Part shown: piece by piece, positions 2,772 to 31,187 of the stretch | Position numbering within the stretch: position 1 is the stretch's first letter | How the letters are laid out: each line of letters opens with the position of its first letter | DNA from: Geotalea daltonii FRC-32 | GTDB lineage: Bacteria; Desulfobacterota; Desulfuromonadia; Geobacterales; Geobacteraceae | DNA: 32,000 nucleotides | Assembly (NCBI RefSeq): GCF_000022265.1 | Contig: NC_011979.1 | Span: forward strand, 2,910,001-2,942,000 | Direction of reading: 5' to 3' | Position numbers and translations under genes: made by a program | The notes under the pieces: generated by a model | What the model saw: only the letters and a program-made list of their open reading frames with translations | What the model was told of the DNA's origin: nothing | Databases searched by the model: none

Positions 2772-5189
2772 ATGCATCCCTTAAAACACCTGCTTGTCTT
2801 GATATTTGGTCTGGCTATTCTTTCCGGCTGTGCCGGCGGTCGCTCCGCGTTCAGCAATGCTGAAAAGCTGGAGCGGGAAGGGCGTCTTGACGAAGCCGTC
2901 CTCAAATATGGAGAAGTCGCAGGCGCCAACCCGGATGTGGTGGAATATCGGTCCAGGTTTCTTTCGGTAAGTGCAGCAGCCGCCCAAAAGCATCTGAAGA
3001 AGGGGGAGGAGTTCCTGGCGGCCCAAAATTATGACGATGCCCTGCGCGAATTCCAAACCGCCTATGCCCTGGACCCTTCCCTTCAGCAGGCCCAGCAGCA
3101 GAGCGAGCTGGTGATCCGCTTGAGGAATTCCCACGTTTATCAGAAAGAAGGGTCGGAGTTCGAGAAAAACCGGAAGCCCAAAGAGGCGATTCGCTCGTAT
3201 CAGAAAGCATTGGAGTTCAACAGTAACAACACCGAGGCCAGGAACGCGGTTGATCGCCTGGTAAAAAGTAAAAAGCCGAAGATGGACGGGTACGAACTGA
3301 ATCTCAAATCTAACAAGCCCCTTACCCTCAAATTCAAGGATGCCAAGATCAAAGAGGTTTTCAACATTATCTCGCAACTTTCCGGTATCAATTTCGTCTT
3401 TGACGAAGGGGTGAAAGACCAGAATTTTTCCATCTATCTGGAAAACGCAACCTTTCAGCAGGCTCTCGACATTATCTGTGGCGTGAACAAGCTGGGTAAG
3501 AAAGTCCTCAATGAAAACACCATCATCGTTTATACCAAAAGCCCGGAAAAAACGAAGCAGTATGAAGAGTTGATCGTCCAGACCTTTTACCTCAACAAGC
3601 TTGACGCCAAAAAAGCGGTAAACCTGATCCGCACCATGCTGCAGGTGAAGAAAATTTACGTCAACGAAGAGATGAACGCCCTGGTCATCCGGGATACCCC
3701 TGAAGTCATCGAAGTGGCGCAGAAAATTCTCGATGCCAATGACGTGCCCGATGCGGAAGTAGTGCTTGAAGTTGAGGTGCTCGAATTCACCAAGAGCAAC
3801 GCTGAGAGCTTCGGTCTGGCTCTGAGCAGGTACGCGGTTTCCACTGCCGCTGCCAAGGTGGGCGCTTCCACATTTTTGTCCGATGTGCTGGTACAGCCCA
3901 CATCCACATCATCTACGACCACCTCGACTACCACCAGCAGCGACAATCTGCTCAGCCTTTTTCGCTGGCGCGGGTTTAATGGCTTTCTGACGGTGCCCAA
4001 TGCCACCTTCAATTTCGGCAAGACCCTGTCCAACAGCGAAACCTTGGCCAATCCCAAGATACGGGTAAAGAACCGGGAGAAGGCCAAGTTCAACGTGGGC
4101 ACCCGTGTGCCGATTACCACCACATCCACCAATGGCACGAGCATCGGTGTCAACGTCAACGTTCAGTACGTGGATGTGGGGGTCAAGGTGAACGCCGAAC
4201 CGACCATCCAGCTGAATAACGAGGTTTCCATCAAACTGAGCCTGGAGGTCAGCACCATCCTCAGCAAGGATAAGATCGGCGATGCCAGTTCGCTTACCAC
4301 CGTCGTCACCATCGGTACCCGCAACCTGGATACCGTCTTGAGCTTGAAGGATGGAGAAACCAGCATTATTGGTGGACTGATCCAGGATGATAAAAGCAAG
4401 AGCAAACAGAAAGTCATGGTTCTGGGCGACATCCCTATCATAGGACCTTTGCTTTCAAATAACGACAATACTAACAGGAAATCAGAGCTGGTGCTGGCAA
4501 TCACCCCCCGGGTGGTTCGGTCTGTTACCGTGCCGGAAGGGGATGCTGCCGGATTCTGGTCGGGCAGGGAAGATGAACCATCCCTGTCCAAGCCCTATTC
4601 ATCCTTTGTTCAGGAGCAGGAACTTGTTCCTGCCGTGCAAACCACGCCGCTTCCACCGGCCGAAGCACCGATAAAACCCGAAACCGAGCCGAAGGCTGCC
4701 CCTTCTGTCCAGCCTCCACCACCAGTTCCCGCACAACCAGAGCCCCCCGCTGCTGCCGAACCGCAATCGCCGGCTCCCAAGGTTACTGTCAATCTGGCTG
4801 CCCCTGCTTCGGTAGAGCTTAATAGTCAGTTCAGCGTCGAGATCAAGGTTGCCAATGCGACCAATCTTATCAACGCGCCCTTCACCTTTGCCTATGATCC
4901 GATCTTTCTTGAACTGATCAGGCTAACAGAGGGCCCCTTCATGAAGAAAGACGGTAAGCCTACCACATTCCGCCCAACCATAGACAAAGTAACCGGGCAG
5001 GTGGCAATCAGCCTTTCCCGACCGGTGGAGGTAGGGGGGGTAACCGGCAGCGGGACACTGGCAATCGCCACCTTCAGGGCAAAAAATCAGGGGCCGGCAA
5101 GTATGGGATTTCTTGATACCAATCTGACTGCCGTCGGCGGGAAGCCTGTAGATGCCCTCTCTTATAGTGCCGTCGTTGAAGTGAAATAG
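2772..5189 (+). CDS. Secretin (PilQ/GspD family) lipoprotein with N-terminal TPR repeats and a C-terminal cohesin-like module
   Basis: 805 aa. Signal peptide with lipobox LSGC. TPR-like repeats (aa ~30-170). N0/secretin_N-type domains (LTLKFKDAKIKEVFNIISQLSGINFVFDEG..., FYLNKLDAKKAVNLIRTML...NALVIRDTPEVIEVAQKIL). Canonical secretin C-domain (GETSIIGGLIQD..VLGDIPIIGPLL..SELVLAITPRVV). A Pro-rich linker and a ~135-aa cohesin-like beta module follow. Confidence 0.9.
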   Translation: MHPLKHLLVLIFGLAILSGCAGGRSAFSNAEKLEREGRLDEAVLKYGEVAGANPDVVEYRSRFLSVSAAAAQKHLKKGEEFLAAQNYDDALREFQTAYALDPSLQQAQQQSELVIRLRNSHVYQKEGSEFEKNRKPKEAIRSYQKALEFNSNNTEARNAVDRLVKSKKPKMDGYELNLKSNKPLTLKFKDAKIKEVFNIISQLSGINFVFDEGVKDQNFSIYLENATFQQALDIICGVNKLGKKVLNENTIIVYTKSPEKTKQYEELIVQTFYLNKLDAKKAVNLIRTMLQVKKIYVNEEMNALVIRDTPEVIEVAQKILDANDVPDAEVVLEVEVLEFTKSNAESFGLALSRYAVSTAAAKVGASTFLSDVLVQPTSTSSTTTSTTTSSDNLLSLFRWRGFNGFLTVPNATFNFGKTLSNSETLANPKIRVKNREKAKFNVGTRVPITTTSTNGTSIGVNVNVQYVDVGVKVNAEPTIQLNNEVSIKLSLEVSTILSKDKIGDASSLTTVVTIGTRNLDTVLSLKDGETSIIGGLIQDDKSKSKQKVMVLGDIPIIGPLLSNNDNTNRKSELVLAITPRVVRSVTVPEGDAAGFWSGREDEPSLSKPYSSFVQEQELVPAVQTTPLPPAEAPIKPETEPKAAPSVQPPPPVPAQPEPPAAAEPQSPAPKVTVNLAAPASVELNSQFSVEIKVANATNLINAPFTFAYDPIFLELIRLTEGPFMKKDGKPTTFRPTIDKVTGQVAISLSRPVEVGGVTGSGTLAIATFRAKNQGPASMGFLDTNLTAVGGKPVDALSYSAVVEVK
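4626..4778 (+). other. Proline-rich linker inside the secretin gene
   Basis: Translates VPAVQTTPLPPAEAPIKPETEPKAAPSVQPPPPVPAQPEPPAAAEPQSPAP. This low-complexity P/A/E tract separates the secretin core from the terminal module. Confidence 0.8.
4779..5186 (+). other. Cohesin-like domain at the secretin C-terminus
   Basis: KVTVNLAAPASVELNSQFSVEIKVANATNLINAPFTFAYDPIFLELIRLTEGPF...GSGTLAIATFRAKNQGPASMGF... matches the cohesin pattern (beta strand, N-[AV]-x-x-[LI]-x-[GA]-x-x-F-x-[LIF]-x-YDP-x-x-L, later G-[ST]-G-x-[LI]-A-x-[IV]-x-F). The same pattern occurs in ORF 11355-12674. Called by eye, not by HMM. Confidence 0.6.
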
Positions 5190-5198
5190 AATTTAAAC

Positions 5199-5702
5199 GT
5201 GAAAACGATCAGAAATAACAGCGGCGTAAGCCTGGTTGAGCTTGTTGTGACCTTGGTCATTCTTTCCATTCTGGCCGCAATAATTCTGCCGTCGGCGCAG
5301 ATGACGGCACGACGTACCAAGGAACTGGAGCTGAAGAGAAACCTGAGGGTGATCCGCACGGCCATAGATGATTTCAGGAAGAAATACGATGATGCTGTTA
5401 AGGAAAACAAGATCCCTTCGGTCCAGAACAAGTCCGGTTACCCTGAGACCCTGCAACAGCTGGTGGAGGGCTATGATTTCGGTGGGTTGGTTAACTACAA
5501 GATGAAGTTTCTACGCAGGATTCCCCGAGACCCTTTCAATCCGACCAAACCGGGTGAGGACGTCAAGGAAGAGGACCTCTGGGGACTTCGCTCCTACGCG
5601 GACAAGCCTGACAGCACAAGCTGGGGAGGGGAAGACGTTTATGATGTCTATTCTCTTAGTGAAGAGACTGCCATCGATGGTACCAAATACAAGGATTGGT
5701 GA
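5199..5702 (+). CDS. GspG-like pseudopilin (class III signal peptide), paralog 1
   Basis: 167 aa with a GTG start. Prepilin-type N-terminus MKTIRNNSG|VSLVELVVTLVILSILAAIILP with Glu at +5. GspG-like body (..RTAIDDFRKKYDD.., ..YPETLQQLVEGY.., ..IPRDPFNP..). C-terminal Y-K-D-W. Confidence 0.8.
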   Translation: MKTIRNNSGVSLVELVVTLVILSILAAIILPSAQMTARRTKELELKRNLRVIRTAIDDFRKKYDDAVKENKIPSVQNKSGYPETLQQLVEGYDFGGLVNYKMKFLRRIPRDPFNPTKPGEDVKEEDLWGLRSYADKPDSTSWGGEDVYDVYSLSEETAIDGTKYKDW

Positions 5703-6136
5703 TGAAAATATCCGTATCTGACAAGTCGCCGCAGATGATCAGGCCATGGGCCAACAAAAAAGCATTCACCCTCATAGAGTTGTTGATAGTCATGACCATT
5801 GTTGGTATCCTTGCCTCCATAGCCGTTCCCAACTACAGATGGGGAATAATCAAGGCAAAGGAAGCGGTGTTGCGGGAGGACCTCTACAACCTGCGCACCA
5901 CCATTGACAATTTCTATGCAGATCAAGGAAAATACCCTGACACCCTCCAGGAGCTGGTGGATAAAAAATACCTGCGTGATTTGCCGAAAGACCCTTTTAC
6001 CAACGATAAAGAAACCTGGAAAGTTGTGCCTCCACCTGCCGGAGGTGAGGGAGAAGAAATCAAAGGCTCCGTGTACGATGTCCATAGCGGCTCCGATCTC
6101 ATCGGTACCAATGGCATATCCTACAACGAGTGGTGA
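5702..6136 (+). CDS. GspG-like pseudopilin, paralog 2
   Basis: The ORF track opens at TTG 5696. ATG 5702 overlaps the upstream stop (TGATG) and has AAGGA 5-6 nt upstream. An alternative ATG near 5735 would give leader MIRPWANKKA. Prepilin motif KKA|FTLIELLIVMTIVGILASIAVP with Glu +5. GspG-like core (AKEAVLREDLYNLRTTIDNFYADQGKYPDTLQELVDKKYLRDLPKDPF). C-terminal Y-N-E-W. Confidence 0.8.
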   Translation: MKISVSDKSPQMIRPWANKKAFTLIELLIVMTIVGILASIAVPNYRWGIIKAKEAVLREDLYNLRTTIDNFYADQGKYPDTLQELVDKKYLRDLPKDPFTNDKETWKVVPPPAGGEGEEIKGSVYDVHSGSDLIGTNGISYNEW

Positions 6137-6180: not shown

Positions 6181-6855
6181 ATGATCCAGTTGCATAACGT
6201 ATCCCTTGCCTATCAAAACGATATGGCTGCTCTCAACAATGTCAGTCTAAAGGTCCCCAAAGGGGATTTTATTTTTTTAACCGGCCAATCAGGAGCTGGT
6301 AAATCGACCCTCTTGAAACTGCTCTATGGGGCGCTGGATCCTACTCAAGGGCAGGTTGTCATTGACGGGCAGAATATCTCTCGACTCTCCCGCTCCCAGA
6401 TTCCCCACCTGAGAAGAAAAATTGGCGTCGTTTTCCAGGATTTCAAGCTGCTGCCTCAAAGAACGGTTCTTGAGAATGTGGCCGTCACCCTGGAAGTCTT
6501 GGGTTGGGGGAAAAAAGACATCGGCAAGAAGGTCTACCACATTCTGAAACAGATGGGGTTGGAGCATAAAATCAACAGCAATCCATTGAGGCTTTCAGGT
6601 GGGGAGCAGCAAAGGGTTGCCCTGGCCCGTGCACTGGTAAACGACCCTAAAATTCTCTTGGCCGATGAACCTACGGGAAATTTGGACGAAGAAAACAAGG
6701 AACAGATTCTTTCCATTTTCAAGGAAGCAAACATCAGGGGAACAACAGTTGTTGTCGCAACCCATGATCGGCGTGCCATTGAAAACTCCCATCGAAGATT
6801 GGTGGTTCTGGAAAAAGGGCGCATCGTGGAGGACTCAAATGTCATCGCGGAATAG
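6181..6855 (+). CDS. ftsE: Cell-division ABC transporter ATP-binding protein FtsE
   Basis: 224 aa. Walker A GQSGAGKST, ABC signature LSGGEQQRVALARAL, Walker B ILLADEPTGNLD. Length and N-terminus are typical of FtsE. Followed by an overlapping ftsX. Confidence 0.9.
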   Translation: MIQLHNVSLAYQNDMAALNNVSLKVPKGDFIFLTGQSGAGKSTLLKLLYGALDPTQGQVVIDGQNISRLSRSQIPHLRRKIGVVFQDFKLLPQRTVLENVAVTLEVLGWGKKDIGKKVYHILKQMGLEHKINSNPLRLSGGEQQRVALARALVNDPKILLADEPTGNLDEENKEQILSIFKEANIRGTTVVVATHDRRAIENSHRRLVVLEKGRIVEDSNVIAE

Positions 6856-7786
6856 ACCGACAAAAAGGCCGAAGCTGGATGGGGATGGCTCTTTTGGCAG
6901 GCTTGGCTACTTCTTTTCCAGGGCTGTTGCCAATTTAAGGCAGAATATTCTTGTCAGTGCTCTCACTGTCGGTACGATCTCACTCTCACTGTTGATTATT
7001 GCCCTTTTTTTGCTCGTATATGTGAATCTTGAGAAAGTGGCGGAAACCTGGAGCGAAAAGGTTCAGTTGACTGCCTTCTTTGAGAAAGAGCTTACCGCTG
7101 AGGAGCTCTCTGCCTTCAAAGATCGAATTGCCTCCCTTGGCGGCACTGAAAAAATTGTTTATGTCTCAAAAAACGAAGCGATGAAAAGGTTCCGCGACAG
7201 GCTCAAAGGACAGGAAACGTTTCTGGAAGGGGTTGTCCCGGATGTCTTGCCTGCAGCCATTGAAATAAGTCTCAACAAGGCCAGCAGAAACAGCGAAGCT
7301 GTCGATTCCTATGCTTCCCGCCTGAAAAACATCCCCGGTATCACTGAGGTCCAGTACGGCGAGGAATGGGTAAGGCGGTTCAACACCTTTCTCAACTTCA
7401 TGCGCCTGATCGGCGCTTTGGTGGGGGGATTTCTCGTTCTTGCCGGGCTCTTCATAGTTTCAAATACCATTAAACTGACTATTTATGCACGAAAAGACGA
7501 GCTCGAGGTGCTGGGGCTGGTTGGAGCAACACGGTTTTTCATAAAAGCTCCTTTTCTAATAGAAGGGATAATCCAGGGCGCAGCAGGAGGACTTGTTGCA
7601 CTTGTGACGCTTGCCGCCTGTTATTTCGGGTTTCTGCATAATGCTGGAAACTTCCTGTCATTTAATGTAACCACAGCAGGTCTATCATTTTTGCCCTTAT
7701 CCCATCTGATTGCCATCTTTGCAGGGGGAGTCTTTGTAGGGTTTATCGGGAGTCTCACTTCCCTTAAGCGTTTCATCGCCATTTAA
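6839..7786 (+). CDS. ftsX: Cell-division permease-like protein FtsX
   Basis: The ORF track opens at 6665 inside ftsE. The first sensible start is ATG 6839 (MSSRNRPTKRP...), a 17-nt overlap with ftsE. It has the FtsX topology: TM1, a large periplasmic loop (..KVQLTAFFEKELTAEE..IVYVSKNEAMKRF..), then three C-terminal TMs. Confidence 0.85.
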   Translation: MSSRNRPTKRPKLDGDGSFGRLGYFFSRAVANLRQNILVSALTVGTISLSLLIIALFLLVYVNLEKVAETWSEKVQLTAFFEKELTAEELSAFKDRIASLGGTEKIVYVSKNEAMKRFRDRLKGQETFLEGVVPDVLPAAIEISLNKASRNSEAVDSYASRLKNIPGITEVQYGEEWVRRFNTFLNFMRLIGALVGGFLVLAGLFIVSNTIKLTIYARKDELEVLGLVGATRFFIKAPFLIEGIIQGAAGGLVALVTLAACYFGFLHNAGNFLSFNVTTAGLSFLPLSHLIAIFAGGVFVGFIGSLTSLKRFIAI

Positions 7787-10390: not shown

Positions 10391-10438
10391 AGGAGGCATT
10401 ACAACATTCCAGTTAAAATACGATTGAAAGGAGTAATT

Positions 10439-11302
10439 ATGCGAAAAAAAGCACTAGTTTTTCTCCTTCTGGGTGTCTTTCTGGCTGTTGTTCTTTCAGC
10501 TTGCGGTGGGGGTGGGGGCGATGCTTCCGCTCCTACCCCTACTCCCGCTCCAACCCCAAGTCCTAGCCCTAGTCCCAGCCCCAGTCCCAGTCCTAGTCCC
10601 AGTCCTAGTCCTAGTCCTAGTCCTAGCCCCGGTCCTGCTGTAACTGCTTCCAAAGGTATCGGCCTTGCGAACAATGCCGACACTATTACCATAACAACCA
10701 CCTTTACGGGAACTGTTCCGGCGGATGGTACAGTTGTCAATTTCTCGGTCACTCCTGCGACTGCAATACTGGGAAACACTACTGCAACTACGACTAACGG
10801 TGTTGCAACGACAACAGTCAAATCTGCAACGGCCGGAGCAGTTGTGATTACTGCTGTCTCTGGCGCCGCAACGGCTAACACTACTGTTAAATTTATAGCC
10901 CAACCGACCGCCATGGATGTTTTCATTGCTTTAAACCCAGCTGTAAGCGGGCTGGCAAGTCTGCAATTTTCTCTGGTCAACGGTTCAGGAGCAACTTTCA
11001 GCTCTGGTTCCGAGAGTGCCGTCAATGGGGCGACAGGGTCCCTTATTGTTGCCAACCAGGCTTCCGGCAGTGACACCACGGTGATTGCCCTGATCAGCGC
11101 CGCCGGTTTCAATACCGGGACTACGCCCATCATCAAACTTTCCTATGGTATAACTTCGGGTCTGCCGGGCATGCAGGTGAGTTCTTCAGGGATTTCGGCG
11201 ACCAGGCTGGCCAATCCAGCTGATCCGTTGAGTGGTGTGCCCTTGGCTCTTACTCCGCAGAATTTCGTAGTCACCATCAAATATAACACAGACACGTTTT
11301 GA
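10439..11302 (+). CDS. Surface lipoprotein with (S/T/A-P) linker and bacterial Ig-like (Big_1-type) domain
   Basis: The ORF opens at TTG 10424, but ATG 10439 follows RBS AAAGGAG. MRKKALVFLLLGVFLAVVLSAC is a lipoprotein signal with lipobox. Then G-rich, TPTPAPTP(SP)12 linker. The Big_1-like segment is ADTITITTTFTGTVPADGTVVNFSV...TTNGVATTTVKSATAGAVVITAV. The C-terminal ~150 aa beta-rich region has unknown fold. Confidence 0.7.
   Translation: MRKKALVFLLLGVFLAVVLSACGGGGGDASAPTPTPAPTPSPSPSPSPSPSPSPSPSPSPSPSPGPAVTASKGIGLANNADTITITTTFTGTVPADGTVVNFSVTPATAILGNTTATTTNGVATTTVKSATAGAVVITAVSGAATANTTVKFIAQPTAMDVFIALNPAVSGLASLQFSLVNGSGATFSSGSESAVNGATGSLIVANQASGSDTTVIALISAAGFNTGTTPIIKLSYGITSGLPGMQVSSSGISATRLANPADPLSGVPLALTPQNFVVTIKYNTDTF
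10559..10630 (+). repeat. Hexanucleotide AGY-CCN microsatellite-like tract encoding (Ser-Pro)12
   Basis: 12 consecutive AGT/AGC + CCT/CCC codon pairs, read directly, preceded by TPTPAPTP. This tract explains the artefactual (GL)n ORFs on the opposite strand. Confidence 0.95.
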
Positions 11303-11354: not shown

Positions 11355-12674
11355 ATGAAATTATTTGATTCTGTAGTGATGTTTATGCTTAGTCTCTTTT
11401 TCGCTGCATCCGCTTTCGCCGCTGCAAATGTGTCAATGGTCTCAGATGACGGCAAATCATGGACTCTGCAGGCAAGCGATTTCGAAAACATTAGCGGAAT
11501 TGATCTCACCATCACCTACGACCCTTCCATCCTCAGCAATCCCAATGTCACGCAGGGCTCCTTTGTTGCCGGCTCAATGATGGTTCCTAATGCTGATGTC
11601 GCAGGAGTTGTTCGTATCGGGATTGTTACAGCCAAGCCCCTGACCGGCTCCGGGCCGATAGCTACAGTGACTTTTCAACGTAAGGCCAGCGGTTCAGCCA
11701 AGCTCAAGCTTGCAGCGAAAATTGTCAACAAAGATCTTGCTCCTACACCGGTAATTCCCGTGAGCCCCACGGATTCAGAGGCAGAAGCTACCGATACTTC
11801 TTCAGGCAGAAAAGCCAACCAGCAAGTACAGACGCCTCAACAATCTGGAAATCAGTCACAATCTAACGGCTCATCCACAGTTGTAGTTGGAGGTCATGTC
11901 ACCCTGCCGTCCGACATGACAGCGTCAACCGAGGAGAAAAAAGCTCAGCAGACAACGCCCGAATACAGGGAAGAGCAGCAACGCGAAGCACCTTCCGTTC
12001 ACAGACCAACGTCTGCACCTGAGGCTAAGCAGGAGGCGGAGGCAAAAGCATCTGCGCTCAAGATCGAGCCACCAGAGAATATCCTTGGTCGGTTCAACGG
12101 ATACAAGGGGGAGATGACAAGCAAGGCTTTGATCCAGTTGTTCGCCGTGGATGAAAAGGCCACAGTTAAACAGGACCCGCCCATACTTTTGGCTGATGGC
12201 AAGGCAAATCTCAAATTAACCGTACGAAACCCGCAAGGTAAACATGCTCCCAATTTTGCACTGAAGAAGGCCAAGCTGGTGAGTCTGAAGGTAGCTTCCA
12301 ACAACACCTGGGTTGTGGTGGCCAAGCCTGAAAAAGGGGTATATGACGCATCCATAACCATGCTTGTTGATGATACCGCAGTTGAAATGCCCTTGACTGT
12401 TGCGCCAAAGGTAGACATTGACCTTGACAAATCCGGGAAGATCGATGACAACGACTTCAAGATCTTCCTTAAGGACCGCGGCAGCAACAAAGCGCCTAAA
12501 CATGACCTGGATAAGGATGGTCGCCGTAACCATATTGATGATTATATATTTACCGCCAACTTTCTCGTGCTCAATCAAATAGCAAACGAAAAACCAATGG
12601 CAGGCAAGGTTCCGGTGGAAACCAAACAGAAGTCTGATACTGTCCGGGGGAGCAGTAAACCCCAGGCAAAATAA
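11355..12674 (+). CDS. Secreted protein with N-terminal cohesin-like module, low-complexity linker, Ig-like middle domain and C-terminal dockerin-like module
   Basis: 439 aa. Signal peptide (..FFAASAFA|AANV). Cohesin-like aa ~24-125. Q/S/E-rich linker. Beta-rich domain aa ~240-350. Two EF-hand-like Ca-binding repeats near the C-terminus. RBS AAGGAGAAG upstream. Confidence 0.7.
   Translation: MKLFDSVVMFMLSLFFAASAFAAANVSMVSDDGKSWTLQASDFENISGIDLTITYDPSILSNPNVTQGSFVAGSMMVPNADVAGVVRIGIVTAKPLTGSGPIATVTFQRKASGSAKLKLAAKIVNKDLAPTPVIPVSPTDSEAEATDTSSGRKANQQVQTPQQSGNQSQSNGSSTVVVGGHVTLPSDMTASTEEKKAQQTTPEYREEQQREAPSVHRPTSAPEAKQEAEAKASALKIEPPENILGRFNGYKGEMTSKALIQLFAVDEKATVKQDPPILLADGKANLKLTVRNPQGKHAPNFALKKAKLVSLKVASNNTWVVVAKPEKGVYDASITMLVDDTAVEMPLTVAPKVDIDLDKSGKIDDNDFKIFLKDRGSNKAPKHDLDKDGRRNHIDDYIFTANFLVLNQIANEKPMAGKVPVETKQKSDTVRGSSKPQAK
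11424..11729 (+). other. Cohesin-like module
   Basis: NVSMVSDDGKSWTLQASDFENISGIDLTITYDPSILSNPNVTQGSFV....GSGPIATVTFQRKASGSAKLKL shares the xxGxxLxxxYDPxxL and GSGxxAxxTF motifs with the secretin C-terminal module (4779-5186). Confidence 0.55.
12414..12575 (+). other. Dockerin-like module (duplicated Ca-binding loop-helix)
   Basis: DIDLDKSGKIDDNDFKIFL and HDLDKDGRRNHIDDYIFTANFLV form two DxDxDG/SG-type loops, each followed by an amphipathic helix. The spacing resembles type I dockerin repeats. Confidence 0.55.
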
Positions 12675-12893: not shown

Positions 12894-15437
12894 ATGATCG
12901 AAGCCTATCTGGCCCATGAAGCCGAACGTAAAGCGCAAGGCATTCCTGCGTTGCCGCTGAATCCTGAGCAGACAACAGGGTTGTGCAAGTTGCTGGAAAA
13001 CCCGCCCGCAGGCAAGGAAGAATTTCTCCTCAACCTCCTGAAAGAGCGTGTTTCTCCTGGTGTTGATCCTGCAGCAGAAGTTAAAGCGGCCTTTCTGGCA
13101 GAGATTGTCAAAGGTTCCAAGAAATCCCCGCTGGTGAGCCGCAAGGAAGCAGTGCAGATACTGGGTACCATGATGGGTGGGTACAACGTCACTCCTCTCA
13201 TCGAAGCCCTTGGCGATGCAGAGCTTGCTGACGTAGCCGCAACTGCTCTCTCGGGCATGACTCTCGTTTACGACGGCTTTGACAAGGTGGTTGCACTTTC
13301 CAAATCCAATGCTGCGGCCAAAAAAGTACTCGAGTCCTGGGCCAATGCGGAGTGGTTCACCAAGCGTCCGGGGGTTCCCGAGACCATAAAGGTCAAGGTT
13401 TTCAAGGTGGAAGGGGAGATCAATACCGACGACTTTTCTCCTGCCGGTGATGCCTGGAGCCGTCCCGATATCCCGCTCCATGCTCTGGCAATGGGCAAGA
13501 CCCGCTTTCCGAACCGCCTTAAGGACATCGCCGCATGGCGTGCTGCCGGCAATCAGGTAGCCTTCATCGGCGACGTCGTCGGTACCGGTTCTTCCCGTAA
13601 ATCCGCCTGTAACTCCGTCCTTTGGCACATCGGTAACGATATTCCTGCTGTCCCCAATAAGAAGACCGGCGGTGTCATCATCGGCGGCGTCATCGCTCCG
13701 ATTTTTTTCAATACCGCCCAGGATTCCGGGGCACTGCCTCTGAAAGCAGATGTAACCAAGATGAATGACGGTGACGTCATAACCATAAACACCAAAAAAG
13801 GTGAGATTTCAAACGAGAAGGGTGAAGTTATCTCCACCTTCAAAATTGCACCCAATACCCTGGCTGATGAATTCCGTGCCGGTGGTCGCATTCCTCTGAT
13901 CATCGGTCGTGCTGTTACCGATAAAGCCCGTGCCGCCCTCGGCCTTGGCGCTACCGATATCTTTACCCTTCCTGTTAATCCCGAGCCCAAGGCTGGCCAG
14001 GGCTACTCCCTGGCACAGAAGATGGTTGGCAAGGCCTGTGGCGTTACCGGAGTTCTTCCGGGAACAGCCTGCGAGCCAAAGATGACAACGGTCGGCTCCC
14101 AGGACACAACCGGACCTATGACCGCCGACGAACTGAAGGAACTAGCCTGTCTCAAGTTCCTCTCACCCATGTTCATGCAGTCTTTCTGTCACACTGCCGC
14201 CTATCCCAAGCCTGCTGACGTTAAGATGCACAAGAACCTGCCCAATTTCATCACCGACCGCTGCGGCGTGCCCCTCAAGCCGGGCGACGGGGTCATCCAT
14301 TCCTGGCTGAACCGCCTGCTTCTTCCTGATACTGTCGGTACCGGCGGTGATTCACATACCCGTTTCCCGATCGGCATCAGTTTCCCGGCCGGTTCCGGTC
14401 TGGTGGCATTTGCCGGCGCCATGGGCTTCATGCCGCTTGATATGCCAGAGTCTGTGCTGGTGCGGTTCAAGGGCAAGCTGAACCCAGGCATAACCCTGCG
14501 CGATGCGGTCAATGCCATTCCCTACTGGGCCATAAAGCAGGGCAAACTCACTGTGCCGAAGAAAAACAAGATCAATATCTTCAATGGCCGTATTCTTGAG
14601 ATGGAAGGTTTGCCTGAATTGACCGTTGAACAAGCTTTCGAGCTTACTGATGCTGCTGCCGAAAGAAGCGCCGCGGCAGGCTGCATCCAGCTCTCCAAAG
14701 AGTCTGTTGCAACCTATCTCCGTTCCAACGTGGCACTGATGAAAAAGATGATCAAGGATGGCTATCAGGACGCAAAGACGCTGCAGAACCGGATTGATGC
14801 TGTCAATGCCTGGTTGGCCAAGCCCGAGCTGCTTGAAGCTGACAAAAATGCCGTTGAGACCGGTGCCTATGCCGATGTAATCGAGATCGATCTGGCCCAG
14901 ATCACCGAGCCGATCCTGGCTTGCCCCAATGATCCCGATGATGTCAAGCTTCTCTCCGAAGTGGCTGGTACGCCGATTCAGGATGTGTTCCTCGGTTCCT
15001 GTATGACCAACATCGGTCATTTCCGTGCAGCTGCTGAGATATGGCGCGGACTGAAGTTTAACCCCAATGTTCGTACCTGGATCTGTCCTCCTACCCGGAT
15101 GGATCAAGCTCAGCTCAAAGACGAAGCTTACTTCTCGGTCTACAGCGCCTTTGGCGCCCGGATTGAGATAGCCGGCTGTTCCCTCTGCATGGGTAACCAG
15201 GCTCGCGTTCCCGATGGAGTCAATATGTTCTCCACCTCGACACGCAATTTCGATGACAGGATCGGGGATGGCGCCAAGGTATTCCTGGGCTCCGCCGAAC
15301 TTGGTGCGGTAGCTGCCACAATGGGTAAACTGCCTACCGTTGCAGAGTTCATGGCTGCCTACAAGGAAAAGGTTGAGCCTAAGAAAGATGTAATTTACAA
15401 GTACCTGCAGTTTGATGAGATGCCTGAATACAAATAG
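12894..15437 (+). CDS. acnB: Aconitate hydratase 2 / 2-methylisocitrate dehydratase (AcnB type)
   Basis: 847 aa. AcnB-specific N-terminal HEAT-like domain ([27 protein letters not shown]...), swivel domain before the catalytic domains, Fe-S ligand contexts (..SFCHTAAYP.., ..GSCMTN.., ..[12 protein letters not shown]..). RBS GGAGGA. Confidence 0.95.
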
Positions 15438-16096: not shown

Positions 16097-17167
16097 CTAG
16101 CTGGTATACATGAACTTGCGTTCCAGATCCATGGAATGTGACAGTCGTTTGGCATCTTCCAGCGTTATGAGATCCTGTTCATACATCTGCAACAGATGCT
16201 GATCCAGTGTCTGCATATGGTACTGGGTCTGTCCATTCTCAATGTGCTTTTCAATCTCATCGAGCCGCCCTTCGCGGATACAGGCCTGTATGGTCGTAGT
16301 GGAACGCATTATCTCAACCACAGGGAAAATGTTATCTCCTGTTTTGTCTTTGACAAGCCGTAACGAAACGGTAGCGACGAGGATGTCTGCCAATCGCTGG
16401 CGGATGATCTCCTGGGCATCGGGTGGGAAATGTCCGACAATTCGGTTTATGGTGGAAACTGCGCTCTGGGTGTGCAGGGTAGACAGGACCAAATGCCCGG
16501 TTTCTGCCGTTTTTATGCAGGCATCGATAGTCTCCTTGTCACGCATCTCTCCAACCATTATCACATCCGGATCCATTCTAAGGGCTGATTTGAGTGCAGA
16601 GTTAAAGCTATCCGTGTCAATCCCCACTTCTCTCTGAATGATGCAGCTTTTTTGTGAAGTAAAGAGAAATTCAATCGGATCTTCAATGGTAATGATATTG
16701 TGGTTGAAATTTTCATTTAGGAATCTCAACATCGAGGCAAGGGTGGTTGACTTTCCGTTACCGGTAGGGCCGGTGACCAGGATCAATCCATTGGGAGCAG
16801 TCGCTATTTCCGAAAGAACAGTCGGTAGGTGCAATTCCGAAAATGTGCCGATATTAGGCGGGATGACACGCATGACGACACCGAAATTGCCCCTCTGGCG
16901 GAATAAGCTAACCCTGAAACGACCGCCGCTGGATAAGGAGTATGATGCATCGAATTCACGCAAATCGGCGTTGAATTCACGACCATTATGCTCCATCACT
17001 GTTTTGGCGATAAAAAGGGTGTCATCTGCCGAAAGGTTGGGCATCTTAGCTCGGATCAGCTGCCCTCTTGCCCTGAAAAACGGGGGATTGTCCACTTCGA
17101 AATGGAGGTCGGATACCTTCTTCTGAAAGGCGATTTCTAATATCTGGTGTAAAGTTCTCGCGTCCAT
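16097..17167 (-). CDS. pilT: Type IV pilus retraction ATPase PilT family
   Basis: 356 aa. Walker A GPTGNGKSTT, Asp box/Walker B (DPDVIMVGEMRD), His box (GHLVLSTLHT), PilT-type C-terminal IQACIREGRLDEI (compare AIRNLIREGK). Confidence 0.9.
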   Translation of the reverse strand: MDARTLHQILEIAFQKKVSDLHFEVDNPPFFRARGQLIRAKMPNLSADDTLFIAKTVMEHNGREFNADLREFDASYSLSSGGRFRVSLFRQRGNFGVVMRVIPPNIGTFSELHLPTVLSEIATAPNGLILVTGPTGNGKSTTLASMLRFLNENFNHNIITIEDPIEFLFTSQKSCIIQREVGIDTDSFNSALKSALRMDPDVIMVGEMRDKETIDACIKTAETGHLVLSTLHTQSAVSTINRIVGHFPPDAQEIIRQRLADILVATVSLRLVKDKTGDNIFPVVEIMRSTTTIQACIREGRLDEIEKHIENGQTQYHMQTLDQHLLQMYEQDLITLEDAKRLSHSMDLERKFMYTS

Positions 17168-17205
17168 AATAAGCCCTTTTCGTTGAAATGTATTTTTATC
17201 TATTG

Positions 17206-18963
17206 CTATTGAGCTTGTTTTTCAAGTTTTTTTCGCATCAGAATATTATCAAAAATAAGGCTTGCATGTTTTGACAGAGAGGCGATCATATCTGTCGGAG
17301 CCGGTGTTGCGGCCTTGGCGCCAAAATCGGCGTAGGTAAGGGCGATGACACGGCCAAAACTCACTATGGGCACGACCAGTACCCTTGTTTCGGCTGGTGG
17401 GCCGATTTCTTCGTATAGAGATATCAATGCCTCATCCTCACCATGTTCAAAGGATATCTTTAAGTCATCTATGGCTTTCTGGAAAACGGAGATGGGCGCA
17501 AGCGAAACTTTAAAACGCAATGGAGCCGTTGCCCCGGTGCTTTTGTCGGATCTTATGCCAATACCGCGTTCAGCTATCAATTCTCCGTTGGCAACAATAA
17601 AAGTTATCGATCGTTCAAAAATTTCCGAGATAAATTTAAGCAGGGCAAATGAGAGGTCAGGTATCTCCTGGGCGATTCCCAAATCATGTATGCACCTGTT
17701 AAAAGCATCAAGTGGGATATTTGCATCGGATGAAAAAGAATTTTTCTGCATGTAAGAGCGGAAGGACTCTGTGAAATTAATGCTTCCTTCTGCGAAACCG
17801 ACTTTGGATTTATTTATATCCGGTTTGGGGAATATGGTGCGAACACCATCTTTCAGAGCCGCCAAAGAGGAATTTATGTCACCTGACACCAGTTTTATCA
17901 CAGACAATGTCTTGTAAGCTGTAAGCTTCGAGTTTATGAGTCGTGAGTATTTCTCATCAGTTCCAAAACTATCTATTATCAGAACAGGTGAGGCCTTTTT
18001 GGCTAGAGTCTGATCGATGATAGGGTCAAGATCAGTTTCATTGTCGGTTGTAAAAACTGCCAATTCATCAGCCTTGCAGGCAGCTGACAACAGGTTCGTG
18101 ATCAGCCTGTCGCAGCTGAATATTATAACGACAGGTCCGGGGATTCGGGGCGAGCCTGGATCTTTTTTGGGTGCGTTTCCGCACAAATCAACCATGTATG
18201 AAACAAGCTTTTGTTGTTGGTCTGCCGGTACGTCAAGAAGTTCTTCCTTCAGTCTCTGGCGCAAGTCTTCAGCCGGATCGAAAAATTTTACCCCTGTAAA
18301 TACCTCAGGGATTTTTTTATCAAGGCTATCCAGATCATCCAGGCCAAGATCGCTTGCCGAGATCAGAGGAGCGTCGCTTTCACATTCAAGAAAACCGGGT
18401 TGTTCCGCATCACTCGTAACAAATGTAGGTTCATTCAACGTCCCGTCACGTTTTTTCTCATCGTAGATGCGGAGTGCGTCCATGAGAATGCTTTGGGTGT
18501 TAAGGTTCAGGGTTTCTTTCAGCGTATCGGGAAAATACCTATATTCGTCAGAAACTGTCAACTTGTCGATTTCCAGTTCAAATGTACCGGTGGTCCAAGT
18601 CAAAACATCGACGATAGTCATCTCTATCAACATCTCCAGCCCTTTGAAAGCTGTGTCCCTGTTGATCAGACCATTTTCTATCAGTGTGGCAATTAAAGGC
18701 TTGCGGTTGTTACCAGCATTCTTCTGTTCCTGCAGAGCGTTTTCCAACTGCGCGGCACTGATGGCATTCAGGTCCACCAGTATCTGGCCAACTTGTATGC
18801 TGTTGTTATGGTGATTTGCACTGACAATGTAGCCTTCATTGAAGACAATCTGACTCTGGCCCCGTTTGCTTTTCAGCCCAAGGGTGCCGGATTTCTTGGT
18901 AGAGTGAAGCAGTTGAATCAAATCGACAATGGGGAGATGTTCAAGATCGCCGACAAAGGACAT
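17206..18963 (-). CDS. DUF4388/PATAN-like N-terminal domain protein with T2SS-E_N-like segment, receiver-like central region and GAF-like C-terminus
   Basis: 585 aa. The N-terminus GDLEHLPIVDLIQLLHSTKKSGTLGLKSKRGQSQIVFNEGYIVSA matches the DUF4388 pattern. VGQILVDLNAISAAQLENALQEQK..KPLIATLIENGLINRD resembles the GspE N-terminal motif. PVVIIFSCDR...PVLIIDSFG is receiver-like. The C-terminus ..ITFIVANGELIAERGIG...VLVVPIVSFGRVIALTYADFG is GAF-like. It ends 38 nt upstream of pilT on the same strand. Confidence 0.6.
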   Translation of the reverse strand: MSFVGDLEHLPIVDLIQLLHSTKKSGTLGLKSKRGQSQIVFNEGYIVSANHHNNSIQVGQILVDLNAISAAQLENALQEQKNAGNNRKPLIATLIENGLINRDTAFKGLEMLIEMTIVDVLTWTTGTFELEIDKLTVSDEYRYFPDTLKETLNLNTQSILMDALRIYDEKKRDGTLNEPTFVTSDAEQPGFLECESDAPLISASDLGLDDLDSLDKKIPEVFTGVKFFDPAEDLRQRLKEELLDVPADQQQKLVSYMVDLCGNAPKKDPGSPRIPGPVVIIFSCDRLITNLLSAACKADELAVFTTDNETDLDPIIDQTLAKKASPVLIIDSFGTDEKYSRLINSKLTAYKTLSVIKLVSGDINSSLAALKDGVRTIFPKPDINKSKVGFAEGSINFTESFRSYMQKNSFSSDANIPLDAFNRCIHDLGIAQEIPDLSFALLKFISEIFERSITFIVANGELIAERGIGIRSDKSTGATAPLRFKVSLAPISVFQKAIDDLKISFEHGEDEALISLYEEIGPPAETRVLVVPIVSFGRVIALTYADFGAKAATPAPTDMIASLSKHASLIFDNILMRKKLEKQAQ

Positions 18964-21978: not shown

Positions 21979-24219
<2,241 letters not shown>

Positions 24220-24232
24220 GGTGCAGTAATAA

Positions 24233-25216
<984 letters not shown>

Positions 25217-25641: not shown

Positions 25642-26775
25642 GTGGCAAAGAAAGTTGCTTTTATGCAGGGTAACGAAGCTGGCGCCCAAGGCGCACTTTA
25701 TGCCGGCTGCAAGTTTTTCGCCGGTTACCCGATTACTCCGTCAACCGAGGTTGCGGAGGTTATGTCGGCAGAGCTGCCTAAGATAGGTGGAAAATTCATT
25801 CAAATGGAAGATGAGATTGGTGCAATGGCTGCGGTCATCGGTGGTTCACTCGCCGGCTCCAAGGCTCTTACTGCTACTTCCGGCCCTGGCTTGTCATTGA
25901 AACAGGAGCTGATCGGCTATGCCTGCATCGCTGAGACACCTGTTGTCATTTTTAACGTTATGCGTGGCGGCCCTTCAACAGGTATGCCGACAGGCCCGAG
26001 CCAATCGGACGTCATGTCTGCCAAATGGGGAACCCACGGTGACCATCCGGCCATCTGCCTTGTTCCTGCGTCGGTTCAGGAGATATTTGAAGAAACCGTC
26101 CGTGCCTTCAACCTTGCTGAAAAATATCGTACTCCTGTCATGATTATGCCTGATGAAATCGTTGCCCATATGAGGGAAAGAATCGTTTTCCCCGAGCCGG
26201 GCGAACTCAAAGTTATCGACCGCACTGCTCCTTCCGTTTCCCCTGATCAATATAAACCTTACGATACCAAATTCGGCGATGTTCCTCCCTTGGCTGCTTT
26301 CGGCTCCGCCTATCGCTTCCATGTGACCGGCCTCAATAAAGCAGAAGACGGCTTCCCCACCACCAAGGCTGCTCTTGTTCAGGCCGAAGAAGAGCGTCAA
26401 GTGCGTAAGGTGGATGCAAACATCGACGATATCGTCACCTTCGAAGAATACATGCTTGACGATGCCGAAGTTGCCATTGTCGCTTTCGGTTCCACTTCAC
26501 GTTCCGCACGTTTTGCAGTTAACGAAGCTCGCAAGGCCGGTATCAAGGTGGGCTTGTTCAGAATCAAGACCTTCTGGCCATTCCCTGACAAGCAGATTAA
26601 AGCACTTGCTTCAAAGGTAAAAGCAATCATAACACCCGAGATGAACCTTGGCATGTGCACAGTGGAGGTTCAGCGTTGTGCCGAAGGCAAGGCACCGGTT
26701 CACGGCATTTTCCGCGTAGATGGAGAGCCGATCAACCCTGGTCAGATCCTCGATAAGATCAAGGAGGTTAAGTAA
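25642..26775 (+). CDS. korA: 2-oxoglutarate:ferredoxin oxidoreductase alpha subunit
   Basis: 377 aa. GTG start 8 nt after AGGAGG. OFOR alpha N-terminus (MQGNEAGAQGALYAGCKFFAGYPITPSTE...). Substrate specificity is inferred from the TCA gene context. Confidence 0.85.
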   Translation: MAKKVAFMQGNEAGAQGALYAGCKFFAGYPITPSTEVAEVMSAELPKIGGKFIQMEDEIGAMAAVIGGSLAGSKALTATSGPGLSLKQELIGYACIAETPVVIFNVMRGGPSTGMPTGPSQSDVMSAKWGTHGDHPAICLVPASVQEIFEETVRAFNLAEKYRTPVMIMPDEIVAHMRERIVFPEPGELKVIDRTAPSVSPDQYKPYDTKFGDVPPLAAFGSAYRFHVTGLNKAEDGFPTTKAALVQAEEERQVRKVDANIDDIVTFEEYMLDDAEVAIVAFGSTSRSARFAVNEARKAGIKVGLFRIKTFWPFPDKQIKALASKVKAIITPEMNLGMCTVEVQRCAEGKAPVHGIFRVDGEPINPGQILDKIKEVK

Positions 26776-26777
26776 AA

Positions 26778-27596
26778 ATGGCTTTTGATTATGATAAATA
26801 TATCCGTCCCGGCAAACTGCCGCATATCTGGTGCCCGGGCTGCGGCCACGGCATAATTATGAAAGGGCTGATCCGGGCCATAGATACTCTTGGCCTTGAA
26901 AAGAACAACACTGCTATCGTTTCAGGTATCGGTTGCGCTTCCCGGCTTCCCGGTTATTTGGATTTCTGTACGTTGCATACTGCCCATGGGCGTGCTGCAG
27001 CTTTCGCTACAGGCGTAAAAATGGCCAAACCAGAGATGAACGTCATAGTAGTCGGCGGTGATGGCGACGGTACTGCCATCGGCGGCAACCACTTCATCCA
27101 TGCCTGCCGTAGAAACATCGACATGACCTACATCATCATGAACAACAACATCTACGGCATGACCGGTGGTCAATTCTCTCCCTGTACGCCTACCGGCGCC
27201 AAGGCTTCCACAACTCCTTATGGAAACCCTGACCCTGCATTCGACATAGCCAAGCTTGCTATCGGCGCAGGTGCTACTTTTGTTGCCCGTGGCACTGCCT
27301 ACCATGCGACCCAGATCGACAAGCTCATTGCTGAAGCAGTTCAGCATAAAGGCTTCTCTGTCGTCGAAATCCTTGACGACTGTCCGACTACTTACGGTCG
27401 TCGTAACAAGTTCAAGTCCGTCATTGAAATGATGAACAGATTGAAGGACATCGCCGTTCCCATCAAAGCTGCCGAGAAAATGACCCCTGAGCAGCTCCAG
27501 GGCAAGATTCTTACCGGCGTGCTTTACAAGGAAGAAAAGCCGGAATACACAACCGAGTATGCAAAGGTTATCGATCGCGCCAAGGGCGGCAAGTAA
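26778..27596 (+). CDS. korB: 2-oxoglutarate:ferredoxin oxidoreductase beta subunit (TPP-binding)
   Basis: 272 aa. CPGCGHG Fe-S motif, TPP motif GDGDGTAIGGNH...NNNIYGMTGGQ. Confidence 0.85.
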   Translation: MAFDYDKYIRPGKLPHIWCPGCGHGIIMKGLIRAIDTLGLEKNNTAIVSGIGCASRLPGYLDFCTLHTAHGRAAAFATGVKMAKPEMNVIVVGGDGDGTAIGGNHFIHACRRNIDMTYIIMNNNIYGMTGGQFSPCTPTGAKASTTPYGNPDPAFDIAKLAIGAGATFVARGTAYHATQIDKLIAEAVQHKGFSVVEILDDCPTTYGRRNKFKSVIEMMNRLKDIAVPIKAAEKMTPEQLQGKILTGVLYKEEKPEYTTEYAKVIDRAKGGK

Positions 27597-27620
27597 TTAA
27601 ATCCTAAAGGAGAAAGTCAG

Positions 27621-28166
27621 ATGTCACAAAGATATGAAATCAGATTCTCCGGGGCAGGCGGACAGGGTTTGATCCTTGCCGGAGTTATCATGGCTGAAGC
27701 CGCCTCGATATATGATGGAAAGCAGGCTGTTCAGTCCCAGAGCTATGGCCCCGAGGCTCGCGGTGGTGCATCCAAGTCCGAGGTTATCGTTTCGGACTCC
27801 CTTATCGACTATCCCAAGGCCACTGTTGTTGATGCGCTTCTGGCACTGACACAGGAAGCCTGCGACAAGTATTCCCATGACCTTAAAGAAGGCGGTGTGC
27901 TGCTTATAGACTCCGACCTGGTTACGAGACAGCCCAAGGGCAACTTCAAGGTGGTTTCATTTCCCATCATCAATACGGCGAAGAATGACGTTGGCCGTGA
28001 GATCGTTGCCAACATAGTAGCGCTTGGCGCGATGGTGGCACTGACCGGGGTCGTCACCAAGGAAAGTGCAGAGAAGGCAGTTCTTGCCCGTGTTCCCGAG
28101 GCATTTGTGGACCTGAACAAGAAAGCTTTCCAGATGGGTTATGACAAGGCTATTGCCGCAAAATAA
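27621..28166 (+). CDS. korC: 2-oxoglutarate:ferredoxin oxidoreductase gamma subunit
   Basis: 181 aa. OFOR gamma pattern (IRFSGAGGQGLILAGVIMAEAA...SYGPEARGGASKSEVIVSD). The last 123 nt are part of the tandem duplication. Confidence 0.85.
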   Translation: MSQRYEIRFSGAGGQGLILAGVIMAEAASIYDGKQAVQSQSYGPEARGGASKSEVIVSDSLIDYPKATVVDALLALTQEACDKYSHDLKEGGVLLIDSDLVTRQPKGNFKVVSFPIINTAKNDVGREIVANIVALGAMVALTGVVTKESAEKAVLARVPEAFVDLNKKAFQMGYDKAIAAK

Positions 28167-30233: not shown

Positions 30234-31187
30234 ATGTTTCTCTTGCCAAAGGGAAATCCATTGTATGAAAACGTTGCTGCTGCCAAAGTCAAGCTGCCGG
30301 AAATACTGGACAAGCTGAAAAACGGCGGTTTCACTGGATATCTCAACTTTGTTTTTCCATCTTCAAACATGATTCTTTTCTTTGAGGGGGGAAAACTTAT
30401 CAGCACCATGTGTGAGCAGGGCAATACCAGATTGTCGGGCTTTGAGGCCTTAGCGGCATTGTGCAGTCATATTTTCGCTGGGGGCGGCAGCCTTTCCGTC
30501 TACAGGCTCTCCCGTGACCTGGTTATGGGACTGCACGCACTGTTGCACGGCGAAGTTCTATACAAAGGGCAGGAACTGAAACTGATCGATGTGAAGGGGC
30601 TCCTTGAAAAGATGAGGGCGCAACAGCTCAACGGCTGCCTGAGAATTTACACCGAGGACAGGTCGGCTCTCATTTTTTACAAGGAGGGGGCACCACTGGG
30701 TTTTTTCCATGATGGATCCAATGATATAGAGACCTCCGCCACCGAATCACAGAAGATTGCCGGGTTACCGGGGGCAAAGGTAGACATTCTTTCCACAAAA
30801 AGCGCAGACGAGTTGATGCTCCTTGACCTACTCGAAATGGTCAATATCGATAAAATATGGGAATCGACCAAAATCCGCCATGAGGCTCAGCTGCAGCAGC
30901 AAAACAAGGAAGCCCGTGAGCGGGACAACAGGCAACAGGATGCGAAACTGCTGGAACTGGAGGAAGATCTGAAAGAAGTCGCCGCAGCCTACCTGGGCAA
31001 AATGGGGCGGACTCTGATCGATAAGGAACTTGCGGACTGCGGCGGCAGAAGGGGCCTGCTTGATGCAGATCAGGTGGCAAAGTTCCTGGCAGGGGTGGAA
31101 AAATCATCGAAGCTGCTTACCAGTCTTTCCAAGTTGAAGGAGATGACCGATCTTTTGCGGAAGGAAATCAGCCGTCTTTCCATTTAA
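30234..31187 (+). CDS. Hypothetical protein with two tandem DUF4388/PATAN-like modules and a C-terminal coiled coil
   Basis: 317 aa. RBS GAAGGAG. LPEILDKLKNGGFTGYLNFVFPSSNMILFFEGGKLIS and IDVKGLLEKMRAQQLNGCLRIYTEDRSALIFYKEGAPLGF both follow the pattern of the N-terminus of the 17206-18963 product (LxxLLxxLxxxxxxGxLxxxxxxxxxxIxFxxGxxxx). Q/E/K-rich coiled coil at aa ~215-250. Family assignment is by eye only. Confidence 0.45.
   Translation: MFLLPKGNPLYENVAAAKVKLPEILDKLKNGGFTGYLNFVFPSSNMILFFEGGKLISTMCEQGNTRLSGFEALAALCSHIFAGGGSLSVYRLSRDLVMGLHALLHGEVLYKGQELKLIDVKGLLEKMRAQQLNGCLRIYTEDRSALIFYKEGAPLGFFHDGSNDIETSATESQKIAGLPGAKVDILSTKSADELMLLDLLEMVNIDKIWESTKIRHEAQLQQQNKEARERDNRQQDAKLLELEEDLKEVAAAYLGKMGRTLIDKELADCGGRRGLLDADQVAKFLAGVEKSSKLLTSLSKLKEMTDLLRKEISRLSI

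Follow-up and report, generated by a model that had tools for sequence, protein, structure and literature searches.

The usual picture of a secretin is that of a channel whose N-terminal part forms periplasmic rings and whose C-terminus bears no more than a short S-domain for the pilotin. In the solved type II secretins, the beta-lip and the amphipathic helical loop (AHL) are the only elements that enter the outer membrane; the rest, with the C-terminal S-domain that binds the lipoprotein pilotin, is periplasmic (PMC6532946). The C-terminal tip of the Tad secretin binds a lipoprotein made of tetratricopeptide repeats (TPR), lying inside the groove of this pilotin (PMC10499894). In Geobacter sulfurreducens, the Pul system is needed for the secretion of the multicopper oxidase OmpB (cited in PMC3543383), an enzyme that takes part in reducing insoluble Fe(III) and Mn(IV) oxides (PMC3543383). 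The pul genes adjoin cell-division genes in Geobacter genomes (PMC3543383), and the order pulQ-pulG-oxpG-ftsE-ftsX was described for P. carbinolicus (PMC3543383, supplement). Here, a secretin gene was analysed which lies at positions 2772..5189 in a stretch of 32,000 nucleotides of Geotalea daltonii FRC-32 (contig NC_011979.1, positions 2,910,001 to 2,942,000; the whole stretch is called the window, and features are on its forward strand (+) unless marked (-)). The Geobacter family to which the encoded protein belongs departs from the usual picture. What is new is a canonical docking module, a predicted cohesin, carried on a long tether in the place that a short S-domain, if anything, occupies in other secretins; what is already known is that public annotation labels such proteins 'cohesin domain-containing'.

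The ORF list, the translation and the Pfam and NCBIfam domains defined 2772..5189 as a complete gene (805 aa and a stop codon) for a PulQ-type secretin lipoprotein. Beyond the ITPR motif at the end of the secretin domain, the protein continues for 223 residues, compared with about 9 residues in the solved PilQ secretins and about 50 in the GspD secretins. The original prediction, made from the letters of the window alone, had described this extension as unusually long and as composed of a linker rich in Pro, Ala and Glu and a cohesin-like module, and on all these points it proved accurate. The strings that it quoted were recovered in the translation (SELVLAITPRVV at aa 571-582, NLINAPFTFAYDPIFLELIRLTEGPF and GSGTLAIATFRAKNQG), and the segment that it had delimited at 4626..5189 corresponds to aa 619-805 plus the stop codon.

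The C-terminal module was assigned to aa 671-805 (4782..5186) from Pfam, structure prediction, Foldseek and PDB profile matches. With the whole protein as query, the Pfam model Cohesin (PF00963) matched aa 675-776 with 28.6 bits, above its gathering score of 24.1; with aa 619-805 alone, the score rose to 33.0 bits (E-value 8.2e-8). An AlphaFold2 model of aa 582-805, computed as a monomer with 31 family sequences as input, displayed an all-beta domain at aa 671-805 with a predicted local distance difference test (pLDDT) of 93-98. Among the best 50 Foldseek matches of this domain in the PDB, all 50 were cohesins. The best one was 2xdh from Archaeoglobus fulgidus (E-value 3e-10, template modelling (TM) score 0.84, root-mean-square deviation 2.1 A over 137 columns). 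Cellulosomal cohesins of type I and type II came next, and cohesins also ranked first in sequence and profile searches of the PDB. As the hidden Markov model (HMM) scored above threshold, the beta-sandwich was modelled with high confidence and the top PDB folds were exclusively cohesins, the C-terminal module is, as judged from sequence and model, a genuine cohesin. The absence of any cohesin match, by which the original prediction could have been overturned, was thus not encountered.

A profile search with this cohesin in a representative library retrieved 13,027 relatives. The best 150 of these either belonged to the secretin family, as members or fragments, or were proteins with several cohesins from uncultured bacteria such as Candidatus Desantisbacteria, and they say little on the spread of the module. 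The nearest relatives outside the secretin family are scaffoldin-like proteins of these uncultured bacteria with 3-13 cohesin copies (proteins P0205-P0352). Some of them also contain canonical dockerins, with the motif DVNxDGxVNxxD present twice.

Between the secretin domain and the cohesin, two segments were distinguished. The first one, defined by family alignment, is a conserved motif of about 30 residues, FWSG(K/R)EDEPS..(K)PYSSF, at aa 584-612 (4521..4607), in which no substitution of F, W, S, G, E, D or P occurs across 31 aligned sequences. A solved homologue of this FWSG..YSSF motif was sought in the PDB and none was found. The helix-turn-helix of an S-domain was not recognised either, the alignments with PDB structures stopping within about 10 residues of ITPR. 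The motif may represent the equivalent of an S-domain, or else a contact site for the fused TPR region of the secretin or for a neighbouring subunit. The second segment is a flexible Pro/Ala-rich linker at aa 613-670 (4608..4781), delineated by composition, family alignment and a pLDDT of about 50-60. The stretch aa 601-672, which includes the linker, contains 21 Pro, 10 Ala and 8 Glu in 72 residues, in agreement with the composition that had been predicted. Across the family, the linker is 45-188 aa long (median 89), with 25% Pro and 24% Ala. In the AlphaFold2 model, aa 582-670 including the motif appeared disordered and devoid of helices.

The fusion was then followed in related proteins. 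A search with the full-length secretin yielded over 1,300 relatives, and the 120 that ranked highest are Geobacteraceae proteins of 791-964 aa. A protein from Geotalea toluenoxydans shares 91% identity with the secretin of the window, and orthologues are carried by Geobacter metallireducens and G. pickeringii. Nearly all of these 120 proteins have a precomputed Pfam Cohesin match, and for several of them the database name is 'cohesin domain-containing protein' or 'type II secretion system protein'. Using a family-specific HMM, the cohesin module was detected in all 121 full-length family members examined, and in 111 of them it stops at the exact C-terminus. Some database entries are C-terminal fragments originating from short contigs.

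The mean identity to the secretin of the window was 82% in N0-N3, 77% in the secretin domain and 65% in the post-secretin motif; it amounted to 50% in the cohesin and 28% in the linker. Such a conservation profile is, at the level of sequence, that of a selected domain on a spacer and not that of a frameshift. A scan of genomes, restricted to one genome per species and to the family-specific pattern FWSG[KR]ED[ED], identified the fusion at no fewer than 57 loci, a lower bound of its spread. All of them belong to Geobacteraceae or unclassified Desulfuromonadales, and the genera include Geotalea, Geobacter, Geomonas, Citrifermentans, Geomobilimonas, Geoanaerobacter and Geomesophilobacter; by its design, the scan is uninformative on secretin-cohesin fusions outside the Geobacteraceae. 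The possibility that the extension arose from a frameshift or an assembly error joining two genes, which had been named as a condition refuting the cohesin claim, was ruled out with practically no doubt left: 2772..5189 is one ORF without interruption, and the same architecture recurs in 121 of 121 homologues and in 57 independent assemblies.

The remainder of the protein has the composition of a secretin. Reading of the translation revealed a signal peptide (2772..2831) with the lipobox L-S-G-C (Cys20); a lipobox was recognised by a strict pattern in 87 of the 121 family members. The signal peptide is followed by a TPR region at aa ~30-165 (2859..3266), in which Pfam TPR_2, TPR_1 and TPR_11 matched aa 74-158. 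Weak NCBIfam matches to the TPR lipoproteins PilW and Tgl were obtained for this pilotin-like region, which resembles, in its sequence, a fused pilotin. An N0/STN-like domain (aa 186-256) and a Secretin_N domain (aa 269-328) were assigned by Pfam at 3327..3755. In the N0 stretch, STN scored 22.3 bits, below its cut-off, and FecR_C 27.1 bits; Secretin_N (PF03958) scored 39.1 bits, above its cut-off of 28.2. The C-domain at aa 420-583 (4029..4520), ending in ..LAITPRVV, matched Pfam Secretin (PF00263) with 129.4 bits against a cut-off of 27.5 (E-value 1.4e-37). This domain aligns with the solved PilQ and GspD secretins, the closest solved structures being PilQ proteins, and by analogy with them the protein is inferred to form a multimeric gated channel in the outer membrane. 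Between the Secretin_N and Secretin domains, a run made only of Ser and Thr was noticed (TSTSSTTTSTTTSS, window 3897-3938, aa ~376-389), which could be a flexible or glycosylated loop.

The NCBIfam models for individual systems were not reached by the secretin, which scored 163.1 bits with the GspD equivalog TIGR02517 (cut-off 351.35) and 163.4 bits with PilQ TIGR02515 (cut-off 284.35). Scores below both cut-offs fit the label 'atypical', and the genes around the secretin point to the same system. Upstream, genes similar to pilM (102-1028, Pfam PilM_2), pilN (1028-1567, Pfam PilN) and pilO (1564-2115, Pfam PilO) are followed, at the position of pilP, by a gene (2112-2744) for a 210-aa protein that has a membrane helix at its N-terminus and a stretch rich in Pro. 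The 210-aa protein had no match in Pfam or NCBIfam; using tblastn it was found in 55 of the 57 related loci, and the other two, L028 and L050, are truncated contigs. Downstream of the secretin, two pseudopilin genes with Pfam N_methyl matches occupy the positions of pulG and oxpG (5199-5702 and 5696-6136), their products being GspG-like in NCBIfam with scores below the cut-off. They are followed by ftsE (6181-6855) and by a mechanically called ORF for FtsX (6665-7786). Wherever the flanks are present in the 57 loci, the order PilM-like, PilN, PilO, 210-aa protein, secretin, two pseudopilins, FtsE, FtsX, EnvC-like and CtpA is kept. Because of this order, with pilM/N/O-like genes, a lipoprotein secretin, pseudopilin genes in the PulG and OxpG positions and then ftsE and ftsX, the secretin of the window is, on the evidence of sequence and gene order, a PulQ ortholog, PulQ being the name of the secretin in the atypical 'Pul' type II secretion system of Geobacter. 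The FtsX ORF overlaps ftsE by about 190 nt. Since the NCBIfam FtsX alignment starts only at aa 82 of this ORF, the true start of ftsX is probably near 6880-6910.

The original prediction had placed a dockerin-binding receptor at the pore. Taken in the extracellular sense, this is unlikely, as the tails of the solved secretins are periplasmic (PMC6532946, PMC10499894). For the same reason, the PulQ extension, which follows directly after ITPR, is inferred to start in the periplasm, outside the barrel and just below the outer membrane; the closest solved relatives of this secretin, which end just after ITPR, support this placement. By analogy, the cohesin itself is most likely periplasmic and not displayed on the cell surface.

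The opposite orientation was nevertheless considered, in which the linker would carry the cohesin to the cell surface, where it would capture dockerin proteins as they exit or anchor them to the cell. The Pul substrate OmpB has a part in reducing Fe(III) and Mn(IV) oxides, which are insoluble and extracellular. The linkers reach considerable lengths (45-188 aa), and the known cohesin systems are extracellular, the PDB matches of the PulQ module being all from extracellular scaffoldins or enzymes. Mehta et al. are said to have found, in 2006, that part of OmpB is retained on the cell surface. Against these points stands the periplasmic position of the segment beyond the secretin domain in solved secretins, together with the lack of a known route by which a folded C-terminal domain, or one tail per subunit, would cross the outer membrane. 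Tails threaded through the gated lumen would block the channel, and aa 584-670, disordered in the AlphaFold2 model, contain no transmembrane or beta-barrel element. A surface receptor was therefore judged the least probable of the functional explanations discussed here.

With some reservation, we favour a periplasmic tethered cohesin that would dock a partner protein at the Pul machine, by analogy with what cohesins do elsewhere. In this scheme, the chain would exit the barrel on the periplasmic side, so that one cohesin per subunit would hang in the periplasm. By homology with the solved secretins, the ring would count 12-15 subunits. Tethers of 45-188 residues, at about 0.3 nm per residue, would measure about 15-55 nm if extended and could sweep much of the periplasm. 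The cohesins would then act as docking sites keeping a partner at the secretion machine. Possible partners are secretion substrates, adaptors and scaffolds of the envelope.

A structural or assembly role without any dockerin partner is a weaker contender, though the strongest of the alternatives. It proposes that the cohesin fold or the FWSG..YSSF motif binds parts of the machine or peptidoglycan, with the fused TPR 'pilotin' domain or neighbouring subunits as targets, and thereby aids multimerisation, stability or anchoring, the likeness to cohesins being one of fold only. The secretin of the window has a fused TPR region, and the C-terminal tip of the Tad secretin sits in the groove of a TPR pilotin (PMC10499894). 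No dockerin passing the family threshold was detected in the window or in the 57 related loci. According to the survey of Peer et al. of 2009, many non-cellulosomal cohesins reportedly come without an identified dockerin. A long, variable and poorly conserved tether is nevertheless better suited to reach and capture than to a rigid structural element, and the sequence signatures of cohesins are kept above the Pfam threshold, beyond the fold alone. Both features speak against a purely structural module.

A candidate for the docked partner is encoded in the window itself. A gene for a secreted protein of 439 aa (11355..12674) is located 6 kb downstream of the secretin gene, after ctpA and the gene of a small lipoprotein. 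The protein consists of a signal peptide, a cohesin (aa ~24-135, Pfam Cohesin E-value 5.4e-7), a low-complexity linker rich in Gln, Ser and Thr, an Ig-like domain (aa ~271-346) and a dockerin-like module. Its cohesin and that of the secretin are homologous, with 24% identity and an hhalign probability of 96.6%. The dockerin-like module (aa 356-412, nt 12420-12590) was recognised from two EF-type calcium-loop motifs, DLDKSGKIDDND and DLDKDGRRNHID, which are 28 residues apart, the second one continuing into DDYIFTANFL. Each loop is followed by a helix in the AlphaFold2 prediction. The region aa 236-416 was modelled as one compact unit (pLDDT 91, predicted TM score 0.88), in which the Ig-like sandwich precedes the succession loop-helix, loop-helix. 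The loops align in register with canonical dockerins (hhalign probability 64%, E-value 6e-5), and across the window and all 57 loci such EF-loop motifs occur only in the gene for the 439-aa protein. The family of this protein comprises 80 clusters, whose named members are, as in the secretin family, Geobacteraceae and Desulfuromonadales. The double-loop motif at the C-terminus, with the consensus FDLNGDGKRDYIDDYIFTANYL, is the most conserved part of this family and matches no Pfam model above threshold.

A canonical dockerin next door to the secretin was rejected, as no Pfam Dockerin_1 match was obtained for the whole 439-aa protein, even with a permissive threshold. Of the dockerin that a receptor in the secretin would call for, the neighbourhood thus offers only a dockerin-like motif failing the family thresholds. 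Among 30 homologues of the 439-aa protein, 16 gave a sub-threshold Dockerin_1 match, the best with an E-value of 4.4e-4. Many homologues end in a Lys-rich tail. The ortholog of Geotalea toluenoxydans (L001, 16866-18204) is split into three pieces in different frames, which suggests frameshifts in that draft assembly, due either to sequencing errors or to a pseudogene.

Several observations weigh against docking by the PulQ cohesin, and in particular against the 439-aa protein as the docked partner. Dockerin_1 (PF00404) scored only 9.4 bits on the protein of the window, compared with a cut-off of 22.9, and EF-hand_1 scored the dockerin-like module as high as Dockerin_1 did. No dockerin was retrieved for this module by a PDB profile search, and Foldseek with the model of the Ig-like and dockerin-like domains returned Ig-like folds only. 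Since neither Dockerin_1 nor the PDB identified a dockerin, the module is termed here dockerin-like. Furthermore, the first calcium loop is degenerate or lost in many homologues. The gene is syntenic with the secretin gene in only 23 of the 57 loci, and in Geobacter sp. AOG1 a distance of 200 kb separates the homologue, which adjoins a gene for a polysaccharide deacetylase, from the secretin. Both facts indicate that the linkage of the 439-aa gene may be with the envelope cluster ftsEX-envC-ctpA and not with the secretin. Finally, cohesins outside the barrel are not obviously placed for loading substrates into the channel.

For these reasons, the 439-aa protein is proposed as a candidate docking partner of the PulQ cohesin and as nothing firmer, the odds being clearly on the other side. 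A more specific proposal, to which a slightly lower probability was given, is that the ring of PulQ cohesins serves as a periplasmic capture device for the divergent dockerin-like module of the 439-aa protein, and perhaps for other substrates. Such a device would recruit bound proteins for export, or would build a cohesin-dockerin scaffold around the secretion machine.

The original prediction had further stated that no functional role was established for a secretin-borne cohesin, and the literature agrees with it. No paper was found on a cohesin carried by a secretin or joining secretin, cohesin domain and type II secretion; a passing mention in the 2009 survey of non-cellulosomal cohesins is possible. 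The papers found on cohesin, dockerin and Geobacter deal with adhesins of anaerobic methanotrophic archaea and sulfate-reducing bacteria (ANME/SRB), not with secretins, and those found on the Pul system report its role in OmpB secretion without mention of a C-terminal cohesin.

The system hosting the tethered cohesin is linked to extracellular electron transfer through the secretion of OmpB and the reduction of Fe(III) and Mn(IV) oxides. Should the PulQ cohesin serve to recruit substrates or adaptors, this would represent a new mode of cargo recognition or of envelope organisation around a type II secretion system, and non-cellulosomal cohesins would gain a concrete function. If the capture of the 439-aa protein by PulQ is true, no earlier cohesin-dockerin pair would have been shown to work within the envelope of a Gram-negative bacterium and as a component of a secretion system. 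If the module turns out to be dispensable, it would be a curiosity of domain architecture, visible in automatic annotation. The hypothesis lends itself to a direct test, since G. sulfurreducens is amenable to genetics and orthologues are present in G. metallireducens and G. pickeringii, which are closely related to it.

Other genes of the window are mentioned for completeness. Between ctpA and the gene for the 439-aa cohesin protein, a predicted lipoprotein of 292 aa (window 10424-11302, lipobox LSAC) is encoded, with a long (Pro-Ser)n linker, an Ig domain resembling Big_1 that does not reach the Pfam cut-off, and a further beta region rich in Ser, Gly and Ala; tblastn matched it in about eight related loci. 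At window 16097-18963 (-), a PilT-like ATPase of the T2SSE family (356 aa) adjoins a 585-aa protein with two DUF4388 (PATAN) domains, and a second DUF4388 protein is encoded at window 30234-31187 (+). These DUF4388 proteins may be regulators of pilus or secretion ATPases. A cluster of central metabolism extends over window 12894-15437, 21988-25216 and 25642-28166 (+), with genes for aconitase B, monomeric isocitrate dehydrogenase, malate dehydrogenase and a three-subunit 2-oxoacid:ferredoxin oxidoreductase.

Among the systems already described, the Geobacter Pul system is the closest. Its PulQ shows the same gene order, is likewise a lipoprotein and has TPR repeats as the secretin of the window does; the latter appears as an ortholog with no structural difference apparent. 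The cohesins of cellulosomal scaffoldins (C. thermocellum CipA, 1aoh and 1ohz; P. cellulosolvens ScaB, 4ums) belong to the same Pfam family and have the same beta-sandwich fold. In contrast to them, the PulQ cohesin, with only about 14-19% identity, is a single module on an outer-membrane channel, is probably periplasmic, comes from a Gram-negative and non-cellulolytic host, and has no canonical dockerin identified as its counterpart. The Archaeoglobus fulgidus cohesin 2xdh is also non-cellulosomal, but it shares only 16% identity and is part of an archaeal protein unrelated to secretion.

The dockerin-like part of the 439-aa protein is reminiscent of the type II X-module-dockerin (XDoc) units of cellulosomal scaffoldins, in which an Ig-like sandwich likewise stands directly before two calcium-loop/helix repeats, as it does in the single compact AlphaFold2 unit described above. 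The spacing of the loops differs, with 28 aa in the 439-aa protein and 30-33 aa in the canonical dockerins examined, and neither XDoc nor dockerin was among the PDB matches. For the secretin itself, the nearest functional parallel is the docking of pilotins to S-domains (GspD with GspS or AspS) and of TadD to the tail of RcpA, where a C-terminal element at the same position recruits a protein to the periplasmic exterior of the barrel. Compared with these systems, the PulQ module has no S-domain helices and differs in fold and size; it is carried on a long tether, by a protein in which a pilotin-like TPR region is already fused at the N-terminus.

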